In this document: in pieces, positions 24,092-30,526 of the stretch
Position numbering within the stretch: the stretch's first letter is position 1
How the letters are laid out: every line of letters begins with the position of its first letter
Virus record (IMG/VR): IMGVR_UViG_3300020048_000055
Span: 1-64,000 of that record
Length of the DNA stretch: 64,000 nucleotides
Strand: one strand, 5' to 3'
Source of the DNA: a virus
Made by a program: the position numbers and the translations under genes
The notes under the pieces: generated by a model
What the model was told of the DNA's origin: nothing
The model's database searches: none
What the model saw: the letters and a program-made list of their open reading frames with translations, nothing else

Positions 24092-25027
24092 ATGGAAAAA
24101 ATATTTGGCGAATTGCCTGATGAGAAATTAAGTAAGCTTATTCAAAAAGAAAATAAGATAAACCCACTTGAAGATTTTCAACCCTCTAACCCCTTCACAT
24201 TAAATCTTATTGACCCACTCTTGGATACAGAAAAGAGTGCCTATTTTATGAAAAAAGCAAACCTAGAAAAACCTTTTAACTTAGACTTGAATGAGCTAAT
24301 CCCTGTATTCAAGGACATTCTTAGTGGTGATAAAAATGCTTTAATGGACCCCCAATTTAATTGTTTGAATTTGGCAAATATTAAACTTGCTATTGATTGG
24401 TTACAGGCAAATAATTCCCTGAATCCTAATATGAAAGATTTATTGGGTACAGAATCATGGAGACTTGTTTATAGAGCAAAACCTCCAACTGCTGAGGAAT
24501 TTCTTTCATATGCGTATCTTGGTCCTCAGAGTGAGACAATGTATGAACCTGTACGAGAACATTTCATAGAAGCATTTAGTCCAATTAAACCTTATAGGAC
24601 AGTAGTTTTGACTCCCCATATTGGATGGGGTAAAAGTTTATTTACCGTTTTAGCAAATTTATACATATCGACTTGTACTTCTCTTATGTGGCATCCTTAT
24701 AAATTCTTCGGTCAGAGTCAACCTCTTGATTGTAAAGTTTATACAAAAGAGGGTTATAAATTAATGGGTGATATTAAAGTAGGGGATAAAGTACTTACAC
24801 CAGAGAATACTGAAGCAGAAGTAATTCAGATTCATCCTCAAGGTAAAATAGCTACTTACGAAATAGAATTAGATGATGGAAGAAAAACAAGATGTAGTGC
24901 TCAACATCTTTGGAAGGTGTCTTACAGAATTGATAGTAATGGTGAAAAAATTTGGGAAACGGTTAATACTCAGTTTATGATAGATAACCCAGACTTAGAT
25001 TTTGAACTCCCAGACTTTTATTACTAA
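24092..25027 (+). CDS. terL: terminase large subunit N-fragment fused to split intein N-half
   Basis: PPTAEEFL, Walker A TPHIGWGKS; residues 209-311 are Hint N-terminal blocks. Confidence 0.9.
   Translation: MEKIFGELPDEKLSKLIQKENKINPLEDFQPSNPFTLNLIDPLLDTEKSAYFMKKANLEKPFNLDLNELIPVFKDILSGDKNALMDPQFNCLNLANIKLAIDWLQANNSLNPNMKDLLGTESWRLVYRAKPPTAEEFLSYAYLGPQSETMYEPVREHFIEAFSPIKPYRTVVLTPHIGWGKSLFTVLANLYISTCTSLMWHPYKFFGQSQPLDCKVYTKEGYKLMGDIKVGDKVLTPENTEAEVIQIHPQGKIATYEIELDDGRKTRCSAQHLWKVSYRIDSNGEKIWETVNTQFMIDNPDLDFELPDFYY
24716..25024 (+). other. split intein N-fragment (IntN, 103 aa, Ser1)
   Basis: Block A SQPLDCKVYTKEGYKLMGDIKVGDKV; block B TRCSAQHLW; ends at a stop with no C-terminal HN. Confidence 0.9.
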
Positions 25028-25034
25028 TTAAATA

Positions 25035-25097
25035 TCTTCTAATAGGATAGGTTTTGGTCGATCGACCTATTAGATTAAAACCTGTCCTTATTGGAGA
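25035..25097 (+). promoter_or_regulatory. RBS-sequestering RNA hairpin of the endonuclease gene
   Basis: 25035-25055 pairs (with G-U) to 25077-25097, which contains the GGAG RBS. Confidence 0.6.
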
Positions 25098-25102
25098 TTT
25101 GT

Positions 25103-26611
25103 ATGGAAAAGAAAAAAGAACTTGTAGGATTAATAAGAGTTAATTGTATTGAAGAAGTTTTAGCTAATTTAAAAGTATATGATAGGATGACTAAAGTTGC
25201 TTTCACTTGTAATAAGTGTAATCTTGACTCAATTAAAACCCTAAGAAAGCTAAAAGAAAAAGGGTTTAATTGCAGGAAATGTTCTCAAAGTGAAGGAAGA
25301 CGGGAATATAAGGTGATACAAGACCCTATAGTTGTTAGTTCATTAGGACAGATACCTAAACTTATAGAAGAAAAATATAGTAATACTCAAAAAATTATAT
25401 TTTTGTGTGAGAGTTGCAAAGTGGAAAAACCCTTTAAGTTAAAACAATTTAAAAATAACGTTATACCTATCTGTGAACATTGCACAAGAATCAAATCTGC
25501 TACAAAGTATATTCATGAAGAAGATCCTGTGAAAGTATCAAGTTTTTTAGAAGTAAAAAACTTGCTAAAAACTCATGGAGCACAACAAAATTTACTTTTT
25601 AATTGCCACAGTTGTGAACAAACTTGTATCAAGAGAATATCTGCTATTACTGAAAAAATGCATTGTGAAAAGTGTACTAAAGAACAAACTCTGTTTAAAA
25701 AACATGGGGTGGAAAATAAAACAGAATTAATAGAAAAACAGAGATTACATAGTAATGCTATACGAAAACCAACAGTTCTTAAAAATTCTGTATGTGAATC
25801 CTGTGGTGTTGGATTTTATAGAGGAATTAGAAAACAATCTGAGTTTAAGTTATGTAGAAAATGTCAAATGAAACAGACTAAAGAATCCAATTATGGATCA
25901 ATTGAAAAGTATAATCTTGAATTAAAATCCTTAAGGGAAGCAACCAATATTAATAGGTATGGTGTGAGATCCACTTGTATGCTTGAATCTGTGAAAGACA
26001 AAATTAAACAAAGTCTAATAAATAGTTTAGGGGTAGATAATTGTCAAAAAAATACGGAGATAAGTACTAAAACTAAACAAACAAAACTAAATAGATATGG
26101 ATATTCTTACTTTAATTTAGTAGAGTCTAAAAAAACTTGTCTTTTAAGATATGGAGCAGAAAGCTACGCCCAATCTGTTTATTTCTCAAAGACAAACAAA
26201 TCAAGATATCTATATAATGACACAAGTTTTGATTCGTCTTGGGAGCTTGCCTATTTTATTTTTTTAACTGATAAAAAAATAAACTTTCAATATAAACCAG
26301 AAGGTATAAGGTATACAGATGGGAACTTAAAAAAACATGTATATCACCCAGATTTTTTCACTGATCATTATGTTGAAATTAAAGGGAATCATCTATTAGA
26401 TAGAGAAGGGAATCTCTTTTGTTGTTTTAAGAGTGAAGAGCAAAACCTTAAAAATGAAATTTCTAAGTATAAACAGATTTGTATGAATGAAAATAATGTT
26501 GAAATAGTATCACAGGAAAAAATAAACCCCGTTTTAGACTATGTATCAAAAGAATACGGGAAAGATTACTTAAAGCTTTTTAAAAGCCCTAAAATACAGA
26601 AAGGAGATTAG
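25103..26611 (+). CDS. free-standing homing endonuclease (8 CxxC + YG repeats + PD-(D/E)XK domain)
   Basis: Eight CxxC motifs; RYGV-type repeats; C-terminal DSSWE...YHPDF...VEIKG; lies between the intein halves. Confidence 0.8.
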   Translation: MEKKKELVGLIRVNCIEEVLANLKVYDRMTKVAFTCNKCNLDSIKTLRKLKEKGFNCRKCSQSEGRREYKVIQDPIVVSSLGQIPKLIEEKYSNTQKIIFLCESCKVEKPFKLKQFKNNVIPICEHCTRIKSATKYIHEEDPVKVSSFLEVKNLLKTHGAQQNLLFNCHSCEQTCIKRISAITEKMHCEKCTKEQTLFKKHGVENKTELIEKQRLHSNAIRKPTVLKNSVCESCGVGFYRGIRKQSEFKLCRKCQMKQTKESNYGSIEKYNLELKSLREATNINRYGVRSTCMLESVKDKIKQSLINSLGVDNCQKNTEISTKTKQTKLNRYGYSYFNLVESKKTCLLRYGAESYAQSVYFSKTNKSRYLYNDTSFDSSWELAYFIFLTDKKINFQYKPEGIRYTDGNLKKHVYHPDFFTDHYVEIKGNHLLDREGNLFCCFKSEEQNLKNEISKYKQICMNENNVEIVSQEKINPVLDYVSKEYGKDYLKLFKSPKIQKGD

Positions 26612-26613
26612 AA

Positions 26614-26738
26614 GTGTCAAGAATAAAAAATATTAAAAGGGTAGAGGATTCTATTCAGCAATGTATATCCTTAAACTCTAAAGAAGGTTTATACTTAACT
26701 GACGAAAAAATAATTACACACAATAGTCCTGCAACGGT
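26614..26738 (+). CDS. terL: terminase C-fragment exon 1: split intein C-half (37 aa) + SPATV
   Basis: AAGGAG RBS at 26601, GTG 26614; MSRIKNIKRVEDSIQQCISLNSKEGLYLTDEKIITHN/SPATV with blocks F and G (HN-S). Confidence 0.9.
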
Positions 26739-27021
26739 AAAATAAATGCCGCCTCAAAGAGTGATCTTTGAGTGAAAAATCGAAGAATGAAGCGGGGAAG
26801 CTTAAACGCCAATCCGAACCGAAGGTCTTTAGTAAAATAAAGGTCAGGGGCAACGCATAGAGGGTGAACCTATTTAATAGAATATAATCCTTCCAAGAGA
26901 CTTCGACATCTCAAAATGAGATGAAAAGATATGCTAAACTGGAGTGGGAATAAACCACTCGATGAAAATGAGGGAAACCTCCAGAGGTGATGATAAAAAA
27001 CTTCACGATAATAACATTTTG
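26739..27021 (+). ncRNA. group I self-splicing intron (283 nt, no ORF, IA-like)
   Basis: P1 CGGU/GCCG with U26738-G26748; P2 CTCAAAGA-GTGA-TCTTTGAG; P3 TCGAAG/CTTCGA; P7 GCATA/TATGC; P8 CATCTCA/TGAGATG; P9 stems; omega-G 27021; P10 TAAAT/ATTTA; removal restores frame. Confidence 0.9.
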
Positions 27022-28693
27022 ATTTACTCAGGTTTTTTGTGCCGTAAGTTTAAAGAAAAGTTCAGAATTACTTTTTGAACCTATGTTAAATCTTTTAGAG
27101 TCATCCCCGTACTTTGTAAAGTGTAGAACAAAGCAAGCTATGGCAGAAGCTGAGGAAGAATTTACAACTAGTAATAAACCCGTAGATCATATCTATTGGA
27201 CAACCGCCACACCTACCTCGGTAATTGCAATGAGTAATGGAGCAAACTATAAACTTATTTCAAGTGCCGGGGGACTTTTGGGTCAGACAATCCTATGCGG
27301 CAATTTTTCAGAAATTTCCTTCTTCACAGACGAAGGCTGGAGCGACGAAAAAATTTTTAAGTTTTTCTATAAGTTGAGAACTCGTATTGAATCTCGTATG
27401 AAGGGAAACTTTTATGGAAGATTCATTCTGGATTCATCTCCAAACACTATGGAATCTGTAATTGACAAATGGATTTGGGAAGATGCTCCGAAGAGTAAAC
27501 TAAATTATATAGTATCTGGTTCACGATGGAAGCATTTCCCTTTAGAATTCCCAGACTTTAAGGATACTCAAGGAAATATAATAAAGGAAAATAGTTTCGC
27601 ATTGTATAAAGGTGGAAATGGAAAAGCCTCTTGTGTACTCCCTGAGGAAGCTGTAGAAGAAATTAGTCCTTTAGATTATGTTATCTGCCCTAAAAACTCT
27701 ATAGGTACTTCCTACATTGATATGGCGAGAGAAAATCCAATAGAGTTTCTTCGGGACCAGTGTGGTATTCCTTCTGGTAGTGCGGATAGACTTTTGAATG
27801 ACCCATTTCAAATAGAAGCTTGTTTTACTCATAAACTTAAGACTCTATTTACTCATATTCAAGCTGATACCAAGGAAGACCCAGAGCATTTAATTTGGGA
27901 TCAAATAAAAACAAAGTATTTCAATAAGATTCTTGACAGGTATTATTTTTGGTATAAACCCGAAATACCACGAGCACTCACTATTGACCAATCTTTTGCA
28001 AAAGACTGTACAGGAATATCTCTTAGTCATGTTGAGAGAGACCCTACAAGAATTGACCCTAACACTGGTGATATGATGAAAATCTATATTACCGATTTTA
28101 CTATTATGGTAATACCAAATGGTGGAGTAATGAACCTTGAAGCTTTTAAGTTTTTTATAATGGACTTAGCCAGATTAGGAAATATGAAAATTCTTCACGT
28201 ATCCTTAGACTCCTTTCAAAGCGTTTCTACTGTACAATCCCTAGAACGGTTTGGTATTGATGCAGAACATCTTTCTGTAGATAAAACTAATGATCCTTAT
28301 TTTAATTTTATTGATATGGTTGTAAAAGGAAGATGGAAAACAGGATTTAATATTTACTTAAAAAATAATATGAGTTCCCTTCAAATGCAAAAGAGATCAA
28401 AAAATGGAGAGAAAAACGCAGGTTCAGCAAAAGTAGAACATATGACTGGTGACATTGTAACTACCGGACCTACTTTATGGACATATGATGAAACCTCTTG
28501 GAAAATGATGAAGAATGGTATAAATGCAAAAGATGGTACAGACTCGGTAGTTGGAACAATTGAACTCTTAAATAAATATAGTAATGAATATGTCCCAACT
28601 TCAATTTGGGTTCCTGATACCATCAAAGAGAAAAACTATGTAAATGCAAAAATTGATGCTAAAAAATTAATGGATAAACTTGGATTCTTCTAA
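27022..28693 (+). CDS. terL: terminase C-fragment exon 2 (ATPase remainder + RNase H-like nuclease)
   Basis: Open frame from 27023 FTQVFCAVSLKKSSELLFEPM; ILDSSP, LTIDQS, SLDSFQS, KDGTDS motifs. Confidence 0.9.
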
Positions 28694-29007: not shown

Positions 29008-29541
29008 TCATCGGAAATATAAGTTTTTCATATTATATTTTATCACTGGATTAACATCTGATGTATACAGTTCCTTTGCTATTTTAAGCATATCTTTCCC
29101 TACTATTGCCTTTTTAATGGCATAGGAAAAAAGCATATTAGAATAGTCTACTTCTGCTTGGGTTGCATCCACTCCACAATAAAGTGCTTCACCTACCTCA
29201 GAAATAATCATTCCTGTATAGAACCCCTTGATATTTGCTGGTACGCAAAATCGGTCTGCATTGCACCAAATACTTACACAAGGTTTTTTCCTTAATGCAG
29301 AAATAAAATCAGAATTAATAATATAGGAACTGTTCCCTAGTAAACCTGCGGGAGTTCCATGTCCCAACATTACAATCCTCTCATAGGATTCTATTATTGA
29401 AATAAGATCCGTTCCATGAAACCTCTTGGTATCTACTGTGTTCCAATCATTTTCACAATAGATTTCCTTAAGAAAATCGGTGCTTGAATCCTTCGGATGA
29501 ATTACCAGTGTTTTAATATTTTCCTCCCTATTATCTATCAA
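29008..29541 (-). CDS. hypothetical protein with possible caspase/CHAT-like His-Cys dyad
   Basis: IVMLGHG ... CVSIWC motifs. Confidence 0.55.
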   Translation of the reverse strand: MIDNREENIKTLVIHPKDSSTDFLKEIYCENDWNTVDTKRFHGTDLISIIESYERIVMLGHGTPAGLLGNSSYIINSDFISALRKKPCVSIWCNADRFCVPANIKGFYTGMIISEVGEALYCGVDATQAEVDYSNMLFSYAIKKAIVGKDMLKIAKELYTSDVNPVIKYNMKNLYFR

Positions 29542-30526
29542 ACTCTATTATAAACTTTGAACCCTCAGACCTTTCAATCTCGATGCTTCCCTTGATTTGT
29601 TTTACCAAGCCCTGAATAAGCGTAAGACCAAATCCTGAATGGTTCTCAAAATCAACTGTATCGGGAATCCCTATCCCATCATCAGAAACTATCAAAGTTA
29701 TTTTCCCATTGAACTTGGAGATTATAACTGATATTGTCCCCTCTTGGACTTCCTTGAAAGCATACTTCATGATGTTGGTTAGAAGTTCGTTTATCAAAAT
29801 ACCTATCGGTTGCGCCCTCTGAGAATCAAGGGTGAAATCTTCAATGGACTTCACGATTGTAATATTCTTGTCATGAGGGAAATGACTCATAATCTGGTCT
29901 ATCAAAGGGTTGATAAAATCTTTCATATTTATTTCCACAAATTCCCCTGCTCGATACAGATTGTCATATAAAACAACCATGCTTGATAGTATGCTTTGGG
30001 CATTTTCAAATATTGCTATGGCTTTTGGATCTACCAAGCTTTGAGACTTAATAGAAAGCAAACTGTTTATCGTATTCATATTGTTCTTAATACGATGATG
30101 AACTTCCTTCAAGATAAGTTCCTTTTCATCCAGTAAATGCTGAATATACTTTTTCGACTCAGATAGTTTCAATGCCATCTTTATCGAAGCATCTATTATG
30201 GAAATACCTGAGTTCTTCAGGATATATCCGTAACAGGTAACTTTCTCCGTCTGCTCAACAAACTCAGGCTCATGATGGCTTGACAGAAATATAATCGGAA
30301 TATCTCGGTCTATTAAAATCTTCTGGGCAGTAACTATTCCATTCATTCCATCCCCCAGATTAATATCCATCAGTATCAGGTCGATGAACGTATTGTCTCT
30401 CAATAGTTCAATAGCCTCTTCCCCTGAACTTGCTACCACAACACTGTACCCATATTGTTCCAAAAACAAATCTTCAATAGCCGCACAGGTAAACTCATCT
30501 TCAACCAACAAAATTGTCTTTTTCAT
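29531..30526 (-). CDS. response-regulator receiver + HisKA_2/HATPase histidine kinase hybrid
   Basis: ILLVEDE, LILMDINL, KEVHHRIKNNM H-box, NELLTN..KYAF N-box, DDGIG, GFGL. Confidence 0.95.
   Translation of the reverse strand: MKKTILLVEDEFTCAAIEDLFLEQYGYSVVVASSGEEAIELLRDNTFIDLILMDINLGDGMNGIVTAQKILIDRDIPIIFLSSHHEPEFVEQTEKVTCYGYILKNSGISIIDASIKMALKLSESKKYIQHLLDEKELILKEVHHRIKNNMNTINSLLSIKSQSLVDPKAIAIFENAQSILSSMVVLYDNLYRAGEFVEINMKDFINPLIDQIMSHFPHDKNITIVKSIEDFTLDSQRAQPIGILINELLTNIMKYAFKEVQEGTISVIISKFNGKITLIVSDDGIGIPDTVDFENHSGFGLTLIQGLVKQIKGSIEIERSEGSKFIIEFDR

Follow-up and report, generated by a model that had tools for sequence, protein, structure and literature searches.

The large terminase subunit (TerL) gene described here lies in a window of 64,000 nucleotides (nt), by which the whole stretch of DNA analysed is meant, i.e. 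positions 1 to 64,000 of IMG/VR virus record IMGVR_UViG_3300020048_000055. Between positions 24,092 and 28,693 the gene is interrupted by a split intein, a free-standing endonuclease gene and a group I intron (Table 1). The anatomy of the locus suggests that TerL is very probably produced as two translated pieces, from which one RNA-splicing step and one protein trans-splicing step would yield a protein of 769 amino acids (aa). A preliminary description of this DNA had named the same three interruptions; each of them proved to be real, as evident from homology, nuclease matches and covariation, and every open reading frame (ORF) and every coordinate given there was reproduced from the ORF list, the sequence and the translations.

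Fractured genes, a terminase locus among them, group I introns in TerL and genes with both kinds of splicing are already known. The new features are the insertion sites lying only five codons apart, together with an intein that is split, and the different type of endonuclease in the fracture. The intein, as judged from its motifs, is also new in being split with a canonical W-C-T triplet and in having family members at a number of TerL sites, and the intron is part of a large family that is invisible to Rfam in the three copies tested. The locus shows to what extent a single essential gene of a phage can be loaded with selfish elements and survive, as two putative self-splicing systems, one acting on RNA and the other on protein in trans, lie within five codons and are kept in several lineages. 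It is also a natural setting in which to ask if an intein and an intron can be mobilised jointly by a free-standing endonuclease. Split inteins find wide use as tools for protein ligation. The present case points to a family of naturally split inteins with a class 3 signature, of which only one, atypical case has been reported (PMC7891396).

Table 1. Coordinates of the elements that make up the interrupted TerL gene (window positions)
Feature	Position	Strand	Description
TerL N-extein	24092-24715	+	208 codons; Walker A HIGWGKS; ends WHPYKFFGQ; collinear with uninterrupted homologues to FFG(Q/L)
N-terminal intein part (IntN)	24716-25027	+	103 codons and TAA; starts SQPLDCKVYT; block B CSAQHLW, Trp at B:12
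Hairpin	25034-25098	+	between IntN stop and endonuclease start; the endonuclease ribosome-binding site (GGAG) is covered by its 3' arm
Free-standing endonuclease	25103-26611	+	502 aa from ATG; longest ORF 25091-26611, 506 aa from TTG
Ribosome-binding site of the C-terminal intein part (IntC)	26603-26606	+	GGAG within the last part of the endonuclease gene, 7 nt 5' of GTG 26614; read from sequence
IntC	26614-26724	+	37 codons, GTG start; QQCISL as block F, with Cys at F:4; IITHN as block G
C-extein exon 1	26725-26738	+	14 nt: Ser+1-Pro-Ala-Thr and GT of Val; last four bases CGGU are the 5' strand of P1
Putative ORF-less group I intron	26739-27021	+	283 nt; guide AAAU-GCCG 26744-26751 (P10 then P1); terminal G27021
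Intron helices	P3: 26780-85/26901-06; P7: 26855-59/26930-34	+	
C-extein exon 2	27022-28693	+	A27022 finishes the Val codon, then 556 codons and stop; rest of ATPase and nuclease domain

Identity and reconstruction of TerL

The interrupted gene is that of the large terminase subunit. A tblastn search with the C-terminal part (TerL-C) returned annotated large terminases in 76 phage records at 21-26% identity, with E values to 1e-13 and coverage up to 99%. In the N-extein, the Walker A motif corresponds in the alignment to the G..GKS that is invariant in the family. The AlphaFold model of TerL (29 sequences; predicted local distance difference test score, pLDDT, of 76) matches in Foldseek the nuclease domain 5m1f (E=8e-6, probability 1.00) as well as the TerL of HK97, D6E and Sf6, and thus has the RNase-H-like fold of terminase nucleases. 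Searches of Pfam, PHROG and NCBIfam gave no match to the TerL extein, and the TerL sequence profile gave none in the PDB. The protein database holds 336 TerL relatives, mostly of 730-805 aa, on contigs of up to 430 kb.

TerL was reconstructed by joining residues 1-208 of the first ORF (24092-25027; 311 aa, i.e. the 208-aa N-extein and the 103-aa IntN), SPATV and the 556-residue C-terminal frame into 769 aa. Against some 120 homologues 730-805 aa in length, the reconstruction in most cases gives a single collinear BLASTP high-scoring segment pair over approximately residues 30-768. With about 100 TerL homologues that are uninterrupted, it aligns as one piece free of gaps. The alignment to homologues, proposed earlier as a check, is collinear with no gap at either junction. 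With MAFFT, gaps are absent only when the junctions (marked by slashes) are FFGQ/SPATV/FTQVF, homologues reading (A/S)P(S/A)T(I/V) at the start of the C-extein. The protein junction FFGQ/SPATV, as first drawn, is correct to the residue, which is also evident from the relatives P0075, L008 and L009, where the corresponding sequence is read through. An intein start at Cys214, extending the N-extein through SQPLD, was tried and rejected; it produces a five-residue insertion against all homologues in MAFFT, and the xQPLD segment moves with the intein to other sites.

The 5' exon ends at T26738 and the intron at G27021, and joining GT/A restores the Val codon that leads into the 556-codon frame; the junction bases given in the preliminary description were confirmed. 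This frame is open over 27023-28693; gene callers reduce it to the portion that starts at ATG 27083. Over the 20 codons 5' of that ATG it is open and conserved with homologues (FTQVFCAVSLKKSSELLFEP).

The split intein

IntN (residues 209-311) was matched by phmmer to the gp41-1 intein (6riz, E=2.6e-9; 6qaz) and also to the class 3 DnaB inteins 6bs8 and 6rix. Its Leu4 aligns with Leu4 of gp41-1 (chain L7), and Ser209 is therefore intein position 1. Blocks A and B are on this ORF, while blocks F and G, ending in His-Asn and followed by Ser+1, are on another, and removal of the intein leaves the extein without gap or insertion. The second ORF starts at GTG 26614, runs to 26745 (43 aa) and ends in ITHN-SPATVK-stop; it reads THN/S and has a GGAG of its own, in agreement with its earlier assignment as IntC. 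All the intein catalytic blocks are intact in this copy. Identity among relatives is 67-88% for IntN as compared to 40-64% for the extein.

IntN and IntC are predicted to dock with each other. The docking of IntN (203-311) to the 43-aa ORF scored 0.89 (0.88-0.89 over the runs) as compared to 0.02 for the best control, a mark attained by 58 of 80 solved complexes and by 2 of 110 mismatched pairs. Contact agreement between the runs was at least 97%, and the pLDDT of the partners at least 86.

The W-C-T triplet of class 3 inteins is present as Trp at B:12 (CSAQHLW), Cys at F:4 (QQCISL) and Thr at G:5 (THN). CSAQHLW aligns with CSEEHL(F/W) of gp41-1, and the QQCISL Cys corresponds to the F:4 Cys (ELICIEV) of the engineered gp41-1 structure 6riz when aligned through the IntC of P0075, which is near-identical. 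The block-F Cys is kept in every IntC copy examined. At three further TerL sites, the family copies begin GWGK/DQPLDA, GSGK/AQPLDS and LLGQ/AQPLDE, and lack a position-1 nucleophile; among the members at other TerL sites (first residue D, A or S), all have the block-F Cys and most have the Trp at B:12. Class 3 was operationally defined by Hoffmann et al. (2020; PMC7891396) by the absence of Cys at position 1 and the presence of Cys at C2:4, and both hold for this intein. In that study none of 1701 class 3 inteins was split, and AceL NrdHF (M-C-T) was reported as the first natural split one. A search of the literature that followed it found no later natural split class 3 intein.

The endonuclease gene

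By its profile matches, the middle ORF is a PD-(D/E)xK nuclease related to T7 endonuclease I. It contains four CxxC...CxxC pairs, DUF7487 repeats (Pfam, E=2e-11) and a C-terminal PD-(D/E)xK domain (PDF...VEIKG), and its PHROG matches are homing endonuclease and endonuclease families. A profile built from 36 sequences matches T7 endonuclease I (1m0d, E=2.7e-4) over the PDF...E.K catalytic motif, and the homologues themselves carry Pfam Phage_endo_I (8/36) or TnsA-like N (5/36) domains. The family comprises 5073 cluster representatives at E<=1e-3. The AlphaFold2 model (pLDDT 92) gives weak Foldseek matches to TnsA, I-Bth0305I and Vsr, all with the restriction-enzyme fold; phmmer against the PDB and a search of NCBIfam gave no match. 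Membership in the Vsr-like/EDxHD group of I-Bth0305I was rejected on the lack of a phmmer match in the PDB and the profile match to T7 endonuclease I, the Foldseek matches to 3r3p and 1cw0 being weak (E ~0.1) and indicating a shared fold only.

The most likely start is ATG 25103, which has a GGAG 6 nt upstream and is also the start of the catalogued protein P0156. The hairpin in front of it has a minimum free energy of -29.2 kcal/mol (z = -4.2), and none of 200 shuffled sequences was as stable; it probably limits translation of the endonuclease. Hairpins upstream of such endonuclease genes were noted in fractured genes by Dassa et al. (2009; PMC2677866).

The group I intron

By homology and covariation, the 283-nt insert is a group I intron of a widespread phage family. 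P1 is formed by CGGU/GCCG, with the U26738·G26748 pair at the splice site, and P10 by AUUU (27022-25)/AAAU (26744-47). The splice-site rules of group I introns are thus followed, i.e. the 5' exon ends in a U paired to a guide G, the intron ends in G and P10 is made with the 3' exon. An in-frame TAA (26743-26745) is placed in the P1 loop, five bases into the intron, so ribosomes on unspliced RNA would halt before the core. The intron has no ORF longer than 30 aa, and its GC content is 0.38-0.42 as compared to about 0.30 in the flanks.

In blastn, the intron is 70-87% identical over the core to inserts that split gyrA in phages phiR1-37 (E=1e-31), BpSp, Goe21 and AR9/PBS1. These inserts are unannotated in the matched phages; the AR9 gyrA is an annotated coding sequence joined from three pieces. 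G27021 lies six bases after a conserved AAUAAC, and the splice sites inferred for gyrA of AR9 and BpSp are at a similar distance of 5-6 bases. A further match of the core, in the same range of identity, is to the insert interrupting the TerL gene of Clostridium phage CpeS-1181, which was discarded as a same-site case on account of its different position, after Walker B.

For the covariation analysis, a structure of 66 pairs was drawn by hand (P2, P3, P4, P5, P6, P7 pseudoknotted with P3, two additional helices located between P7 and P3', then P8, and P9 in three-way form) and counted on an alignment of eight sequences. The cells are paired in 91.9% of cases and 45 of the 66 pairs are changed on both sides; none of 500 shuffles was as high, and slid partners gave 29-45%. 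P3 is paired in 100% of cases, with four of its six pairs covarying.

A 26-nt stretch of the core, GATGAAAATGAGGGAAACCTCCAGAG (26961-26986), is present without mismatch in more than 106 IMG/VR contigs and in many different host genes. In 60 unique IMG/VR copies, pairing in the two hairpins that flank it amounts to 97%, and as many as four kinds of Watson-Crick pair occur at a position. Among 80 loci with this core (L026-L105), none lies within a TerL of the present family.

An unannotated intron of the same family was observed in Klebsiella phage phiKp_32 (1480-1830), with the ACGGT 5' exon end and the GCCGCC guide that are found here. As a TerL case it was rejected; it is flanked by two hypothetical genes that are not TerL homologues, and its 3' half is unlike that of the window intron.

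Recurrence in related terminases

In P0075 the same intein occurs at the same site unsplit, with neither endonuclease nor intron, and the protein reads IVTHN/SPATVYTQVFCAAS straight through. Its intein shares 66% identity in the N part, and 60% in the C part, with the intein of the window, as compared to 48% for the extein. A metagenome scan with P0121, a C-terminal TerL part with the same Met start as TerL-C of the window, returned the loci L008 and L009; the contig of P0121 and the N-half P0128 was not among its matches. L008 and L009 are uninterrupted at the 208/209 site, where they read FFGQSPATIY or FFGHSPATIY, and encode TerL with a large endonuclease-containing intein in the P-loop.

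Ten further protein clusters (P0123-P0131 and P0136) are N-halves of TerL, each closing with this IntN at this site. P0128 and P0121 are both found on contigs of 29,932 b. A search with the 43-aa ORF of the window returned two mini-ORFs of 43 aa, P0323 and P0325, that end in THNSPATIN-stop; as in the window, a single codon separates the fifth C-extein residue from the premature stop. P0323 is on a 3,120-b contig, as is the N-half P0136, and P0325 is on a 70,766-b contig, as is the N-half P0124. P0324, returned by the same search, continues into YTQV, by contrast with them, and has no intron. The shared mini-ORFs and N-halves suggest that the stack is present in at least three lineages, and alleles with the intein alone also exist. 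The earlier view that the stacking is unusual holds in that the stack and its details are new, but it is not unique, as evident from P0323 and P0325 on other assemblies.

On the 3,120-b ENA contig of P0136, a 174-aa ORF comprises the IntC of a P-loop split intein, 27 TerL residues and the 208/209 IntN. By this arrangement, TerL of that relative is apparently fractured at least twice and, judging from P0323, would carry the intron too. The IntN tail of P0136 ends in NGTQVFCD, which echoes the extein motif TQVFC.

Inteins of this TerL clade, split or contiguous, are found in the P-loop (Walker A GK/S), at 208/209, at ~245 and at ~301. The homologues in the survey of sites were P0008, P0012, P0013, P0044, P0071, P0084, P0057, P0109, P0004, P0081, P0104 and P0095, together with L008, L009 and L013-L015. 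On the evidence of these sequences, the jumbo-phage TerL clade is an intein hot spot. Scans of IMG/VR with single proteins for close relatives returned one uninterrupted TerL (L007) only; those with the N ORF and with the endonuclease had no match. The intein-profile scan returned 13 loci, of which three (L013-L015) are TerL homologues broken elsewhere and 10 match the intein part only; none of the 13 has this intron.

Proposed route to mature TerL

The first piece would be TerL(1-208) fused to the 103-aa IntN. Translation of the second piece would start at GTG 26614, behind its own GGAG, and give the 37-aa IntC and Ser+1-Pro-Ala-Thr-Val before reaching the 283-nt intron. This intron would set its own splice sites, as the guide AAAU-GCCG can pair with both exon ends (P1 and P10), and its excision would join GT/A to the 556-codon TerL-C frame (junction ACGGT^ATTTACT). 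The docked IntN and IntC would then ligate FFGQ to SPATV, with FFGQSPATVFTQ as the peptide spanning the junctions. The W-C-T triplet suggests that the block-F Cys of IntC, and not Ser1, most likely acts as the first nucleophile. We infer that the intron self-splices and that the halves trans-splice, and packaging would depend on both these reactions. More doubtfully, the 43-aa IntC-SPATVK peptide made from unspliced RNA could cap TerL-N; if so, the splicing efficiency of the intron would gate DNA packaging.

As to the origin of the arrangement, an endonuclease gene most likely invaded a once-contiguous mini-intein and gave rise to the fractured gene. The endonuclease would home to intein-less alleles. 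With the intron 14 nt away, such homing would co-convert the intron as well.

Alternative explanations

Class 3 is the assignment towards which the motifs of the intein incline us. With the same anatomy but class 1 chemistry, Ser209 (Ser1) would form the first ester and the block-F Cys would be structural only; this is a rather unlikely alternative, in spite of Ser being the first residue in all alleles at the 208/209 site, of gp41-1, a class 1 intein, being the closest solved relative by sequence, and of the Thr at G:5 (THN) that gp41-1 shares. Family members elsewhere with Ala1 or Asp1 cannot use the class 1 route, yet keep the Cys at F:4 and mostly the Trp at B:12, and the operational definition of Hoffmann et al. 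(2020) is satisfied too. Several observations nevertheless weigh against the class 3 assignment or the splicing scheme as a whole. With Ser at position 1, this copy could in chemical terms take the class 1 route. Intein position 6 (SQPLDC, residue 214) is invariably Cys in 11 of 11 alleles at the 208/209 site, where copies at other TerL sites have Ala, Ser or Glu, and the high docking score may reflect mere likeness to solved split inteins. In the intron, P4 and P5 as drawn are short (3 and 2 bp) and the guanosine-binding pair of P7 was not pinpointed. The Infernal search for group I introns suggested in the preliminary description did not bear it out, as Rfam 15 gave no group I match at the gathering score or at E<=10, either on the window or on 26400-27300; the null is uninformative, because the gyrA intron loci of AR9 and BpSp were equally missed by the same search. 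This blindness to three copies also suggests that genes interrupted by such introns are likely mis-annotated as fragments. The source contig is a metagenome assembly, which bears on the expression and viability of this exact genome.

That the locus is a decaying or non-spliced mosaic, with TerL-C starting at ATG 27083 and the halves either assembling non-covalently or belonging to a dead gene, is very improbable. ATG 27083 does open a 536-aa ORF that is chosen by gene callers (P0002, P0121), and non-covalent rescue of the endonuclease-split Aeh1 NrdA has been reported (PMC3045599). No GGAG precedes this ATG, however, and the 20 codons on its 5' side are open and conserved; the catalytic blocks of the intein are intact and IntN is more conserved than the extein; the intron retains P1, P10, the terminal G and compensatory pairs; and the arrangement is kept in diverged relatives. 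The origin of the stack is a separate matter. The split intein, the endonuclease and the intron might be one composite mobile cassette, which a single PD-(D/E)xK endonuclease spreads between divergent TerL genes of jumbo phages, with the intein drawn from an undescribed, abundant family of split class 3 W-C-T inteins at at least four TerL sites, a proposal that is tentative and rather doubtful. A chance just short of even is given to the intron, and to the split intein with its endonuclease, being independent invaders of a conserved hot spot, with their proximity coincidental. The intron is absent from P0075 and P0324, both of which have the intein, the intron family occurs in many unrelated genes, and the TerL clade is a general hot spot with inteins in the P-loop and at 208/209, ~245 and ~301. 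The joint presence of split intein and intron in at least three lineages speaks against independent invasion, as does the 14-nt spacing, a distance so short that both would be taken along in gene conversion from any break close by. Independent invasion concerns the origin only, and is compatible with the production of TerL by RNA and protein splicing.

Comparison with known systems

Fractured genes were described by Dassa, London, Stoddard and Pietrokovski (2009; PMC2677866) for gp41-1, NrdJ-1, IMPDH-1 and a terminase locus. The present locus shares with them the order of an N-extein-IntN ORF, an endonuclease ORF on the same strand and an IntC-C-extein ORF, as well as the break at the usual endonuclease-insertion loop, the hairpin 5' of the endonuclease and an IntN closest to gp41-1. 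It differs in its endonuclease, which is of the DUF7487 and T7-endonuclease-I-like PD-(D/E)xK type rather than GIY-YIG or Vsr-like, in the W-C-T intein with Ser1 and in the group I intron 14 nt later.

AceL NrdHF (PMC7891396) is similar in being naturally split in a fractured phage-like gene, in lacking Cys1 and having Cys at F:4 and Thr at G:5, and in its fragment sizes (98 and 48 aa as compared to 103 and 37 aa here). It is an atypical M-C-T intein with Ala1 that lacks two conserved His, and is located in nrdHF with a GIY-YIG endonuclease. The present intein, in contrast, has the canonical W-C-T, a His-Asn end and Ser1, is located in TerL and belongs to a family found at four or more TerL sites.

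Introns in TerL and Pol are known in Bastillevirinae (PMC11878797). With the phage group IA introns of AR9, BpSp, Goe21, phiR1-37 and CpeS-1181, the present intron shares the guide GCCG with NGGU, the extra helices between P7 and P3' and the G located 5-6 nt after AAUAAC. It differs from them in gene and site, in the absence of an internal ORF, in its length of only 283 nt and in its position inside the C-extein of a split intein.

In collaborative or trans homing, as known for cyanophage psbA with F-CphI and for T4 mobE/I-TevIII, a free-standing endonuclease is found near an ORF-less intron (PMC3984707, PMC2790892). The present ORF-less intron likewise lies at most 0.13 kb from such an endonuclease gene, both being in one host gene. 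This endonuclease gene lies, unlike in those cases, within a split intein and not beside the host gene.

Both introns and inteins are present in bnrdE/F of SPbeta and in the ribonucleotide reductase gene of Trichodesmium, and TerL would resemble them as one essential gene requiring RNA splicing and protein splicing. In those genes the elements are far apart and the inteins splice in cis, whereas the insertion sites here are separated by 14 nt and the intein is split. Genes of crAss-like phages are likewise reported to carry both kinds of element (PMC7886860).

Source record and neighbouring genes

The IMG/VR record, of which the window is the first 64 kb, has 108,876 b and an estimated completeness of 37%, values that imply a jumbo-type phage as the source; the origin is thus an uncultured, jumbo-type phage. 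The G+C content around the TerL locus is ~30%. A search of the rest of the 108.9-kb record found no second copy of the intron, IntN or endonuclease. PHROG searches with eight ORFs neighbouring TerL found no family; most of the neighbours are without a PHROG family. Directly 3' of TerL, on the opposite strand (-), an ORF at 29531-30526 is receiver-domain and histidine-kinase-like, an unusual cargo for a phage. It is overlapped by a 177-aa ORF at 29008-29541 (-).

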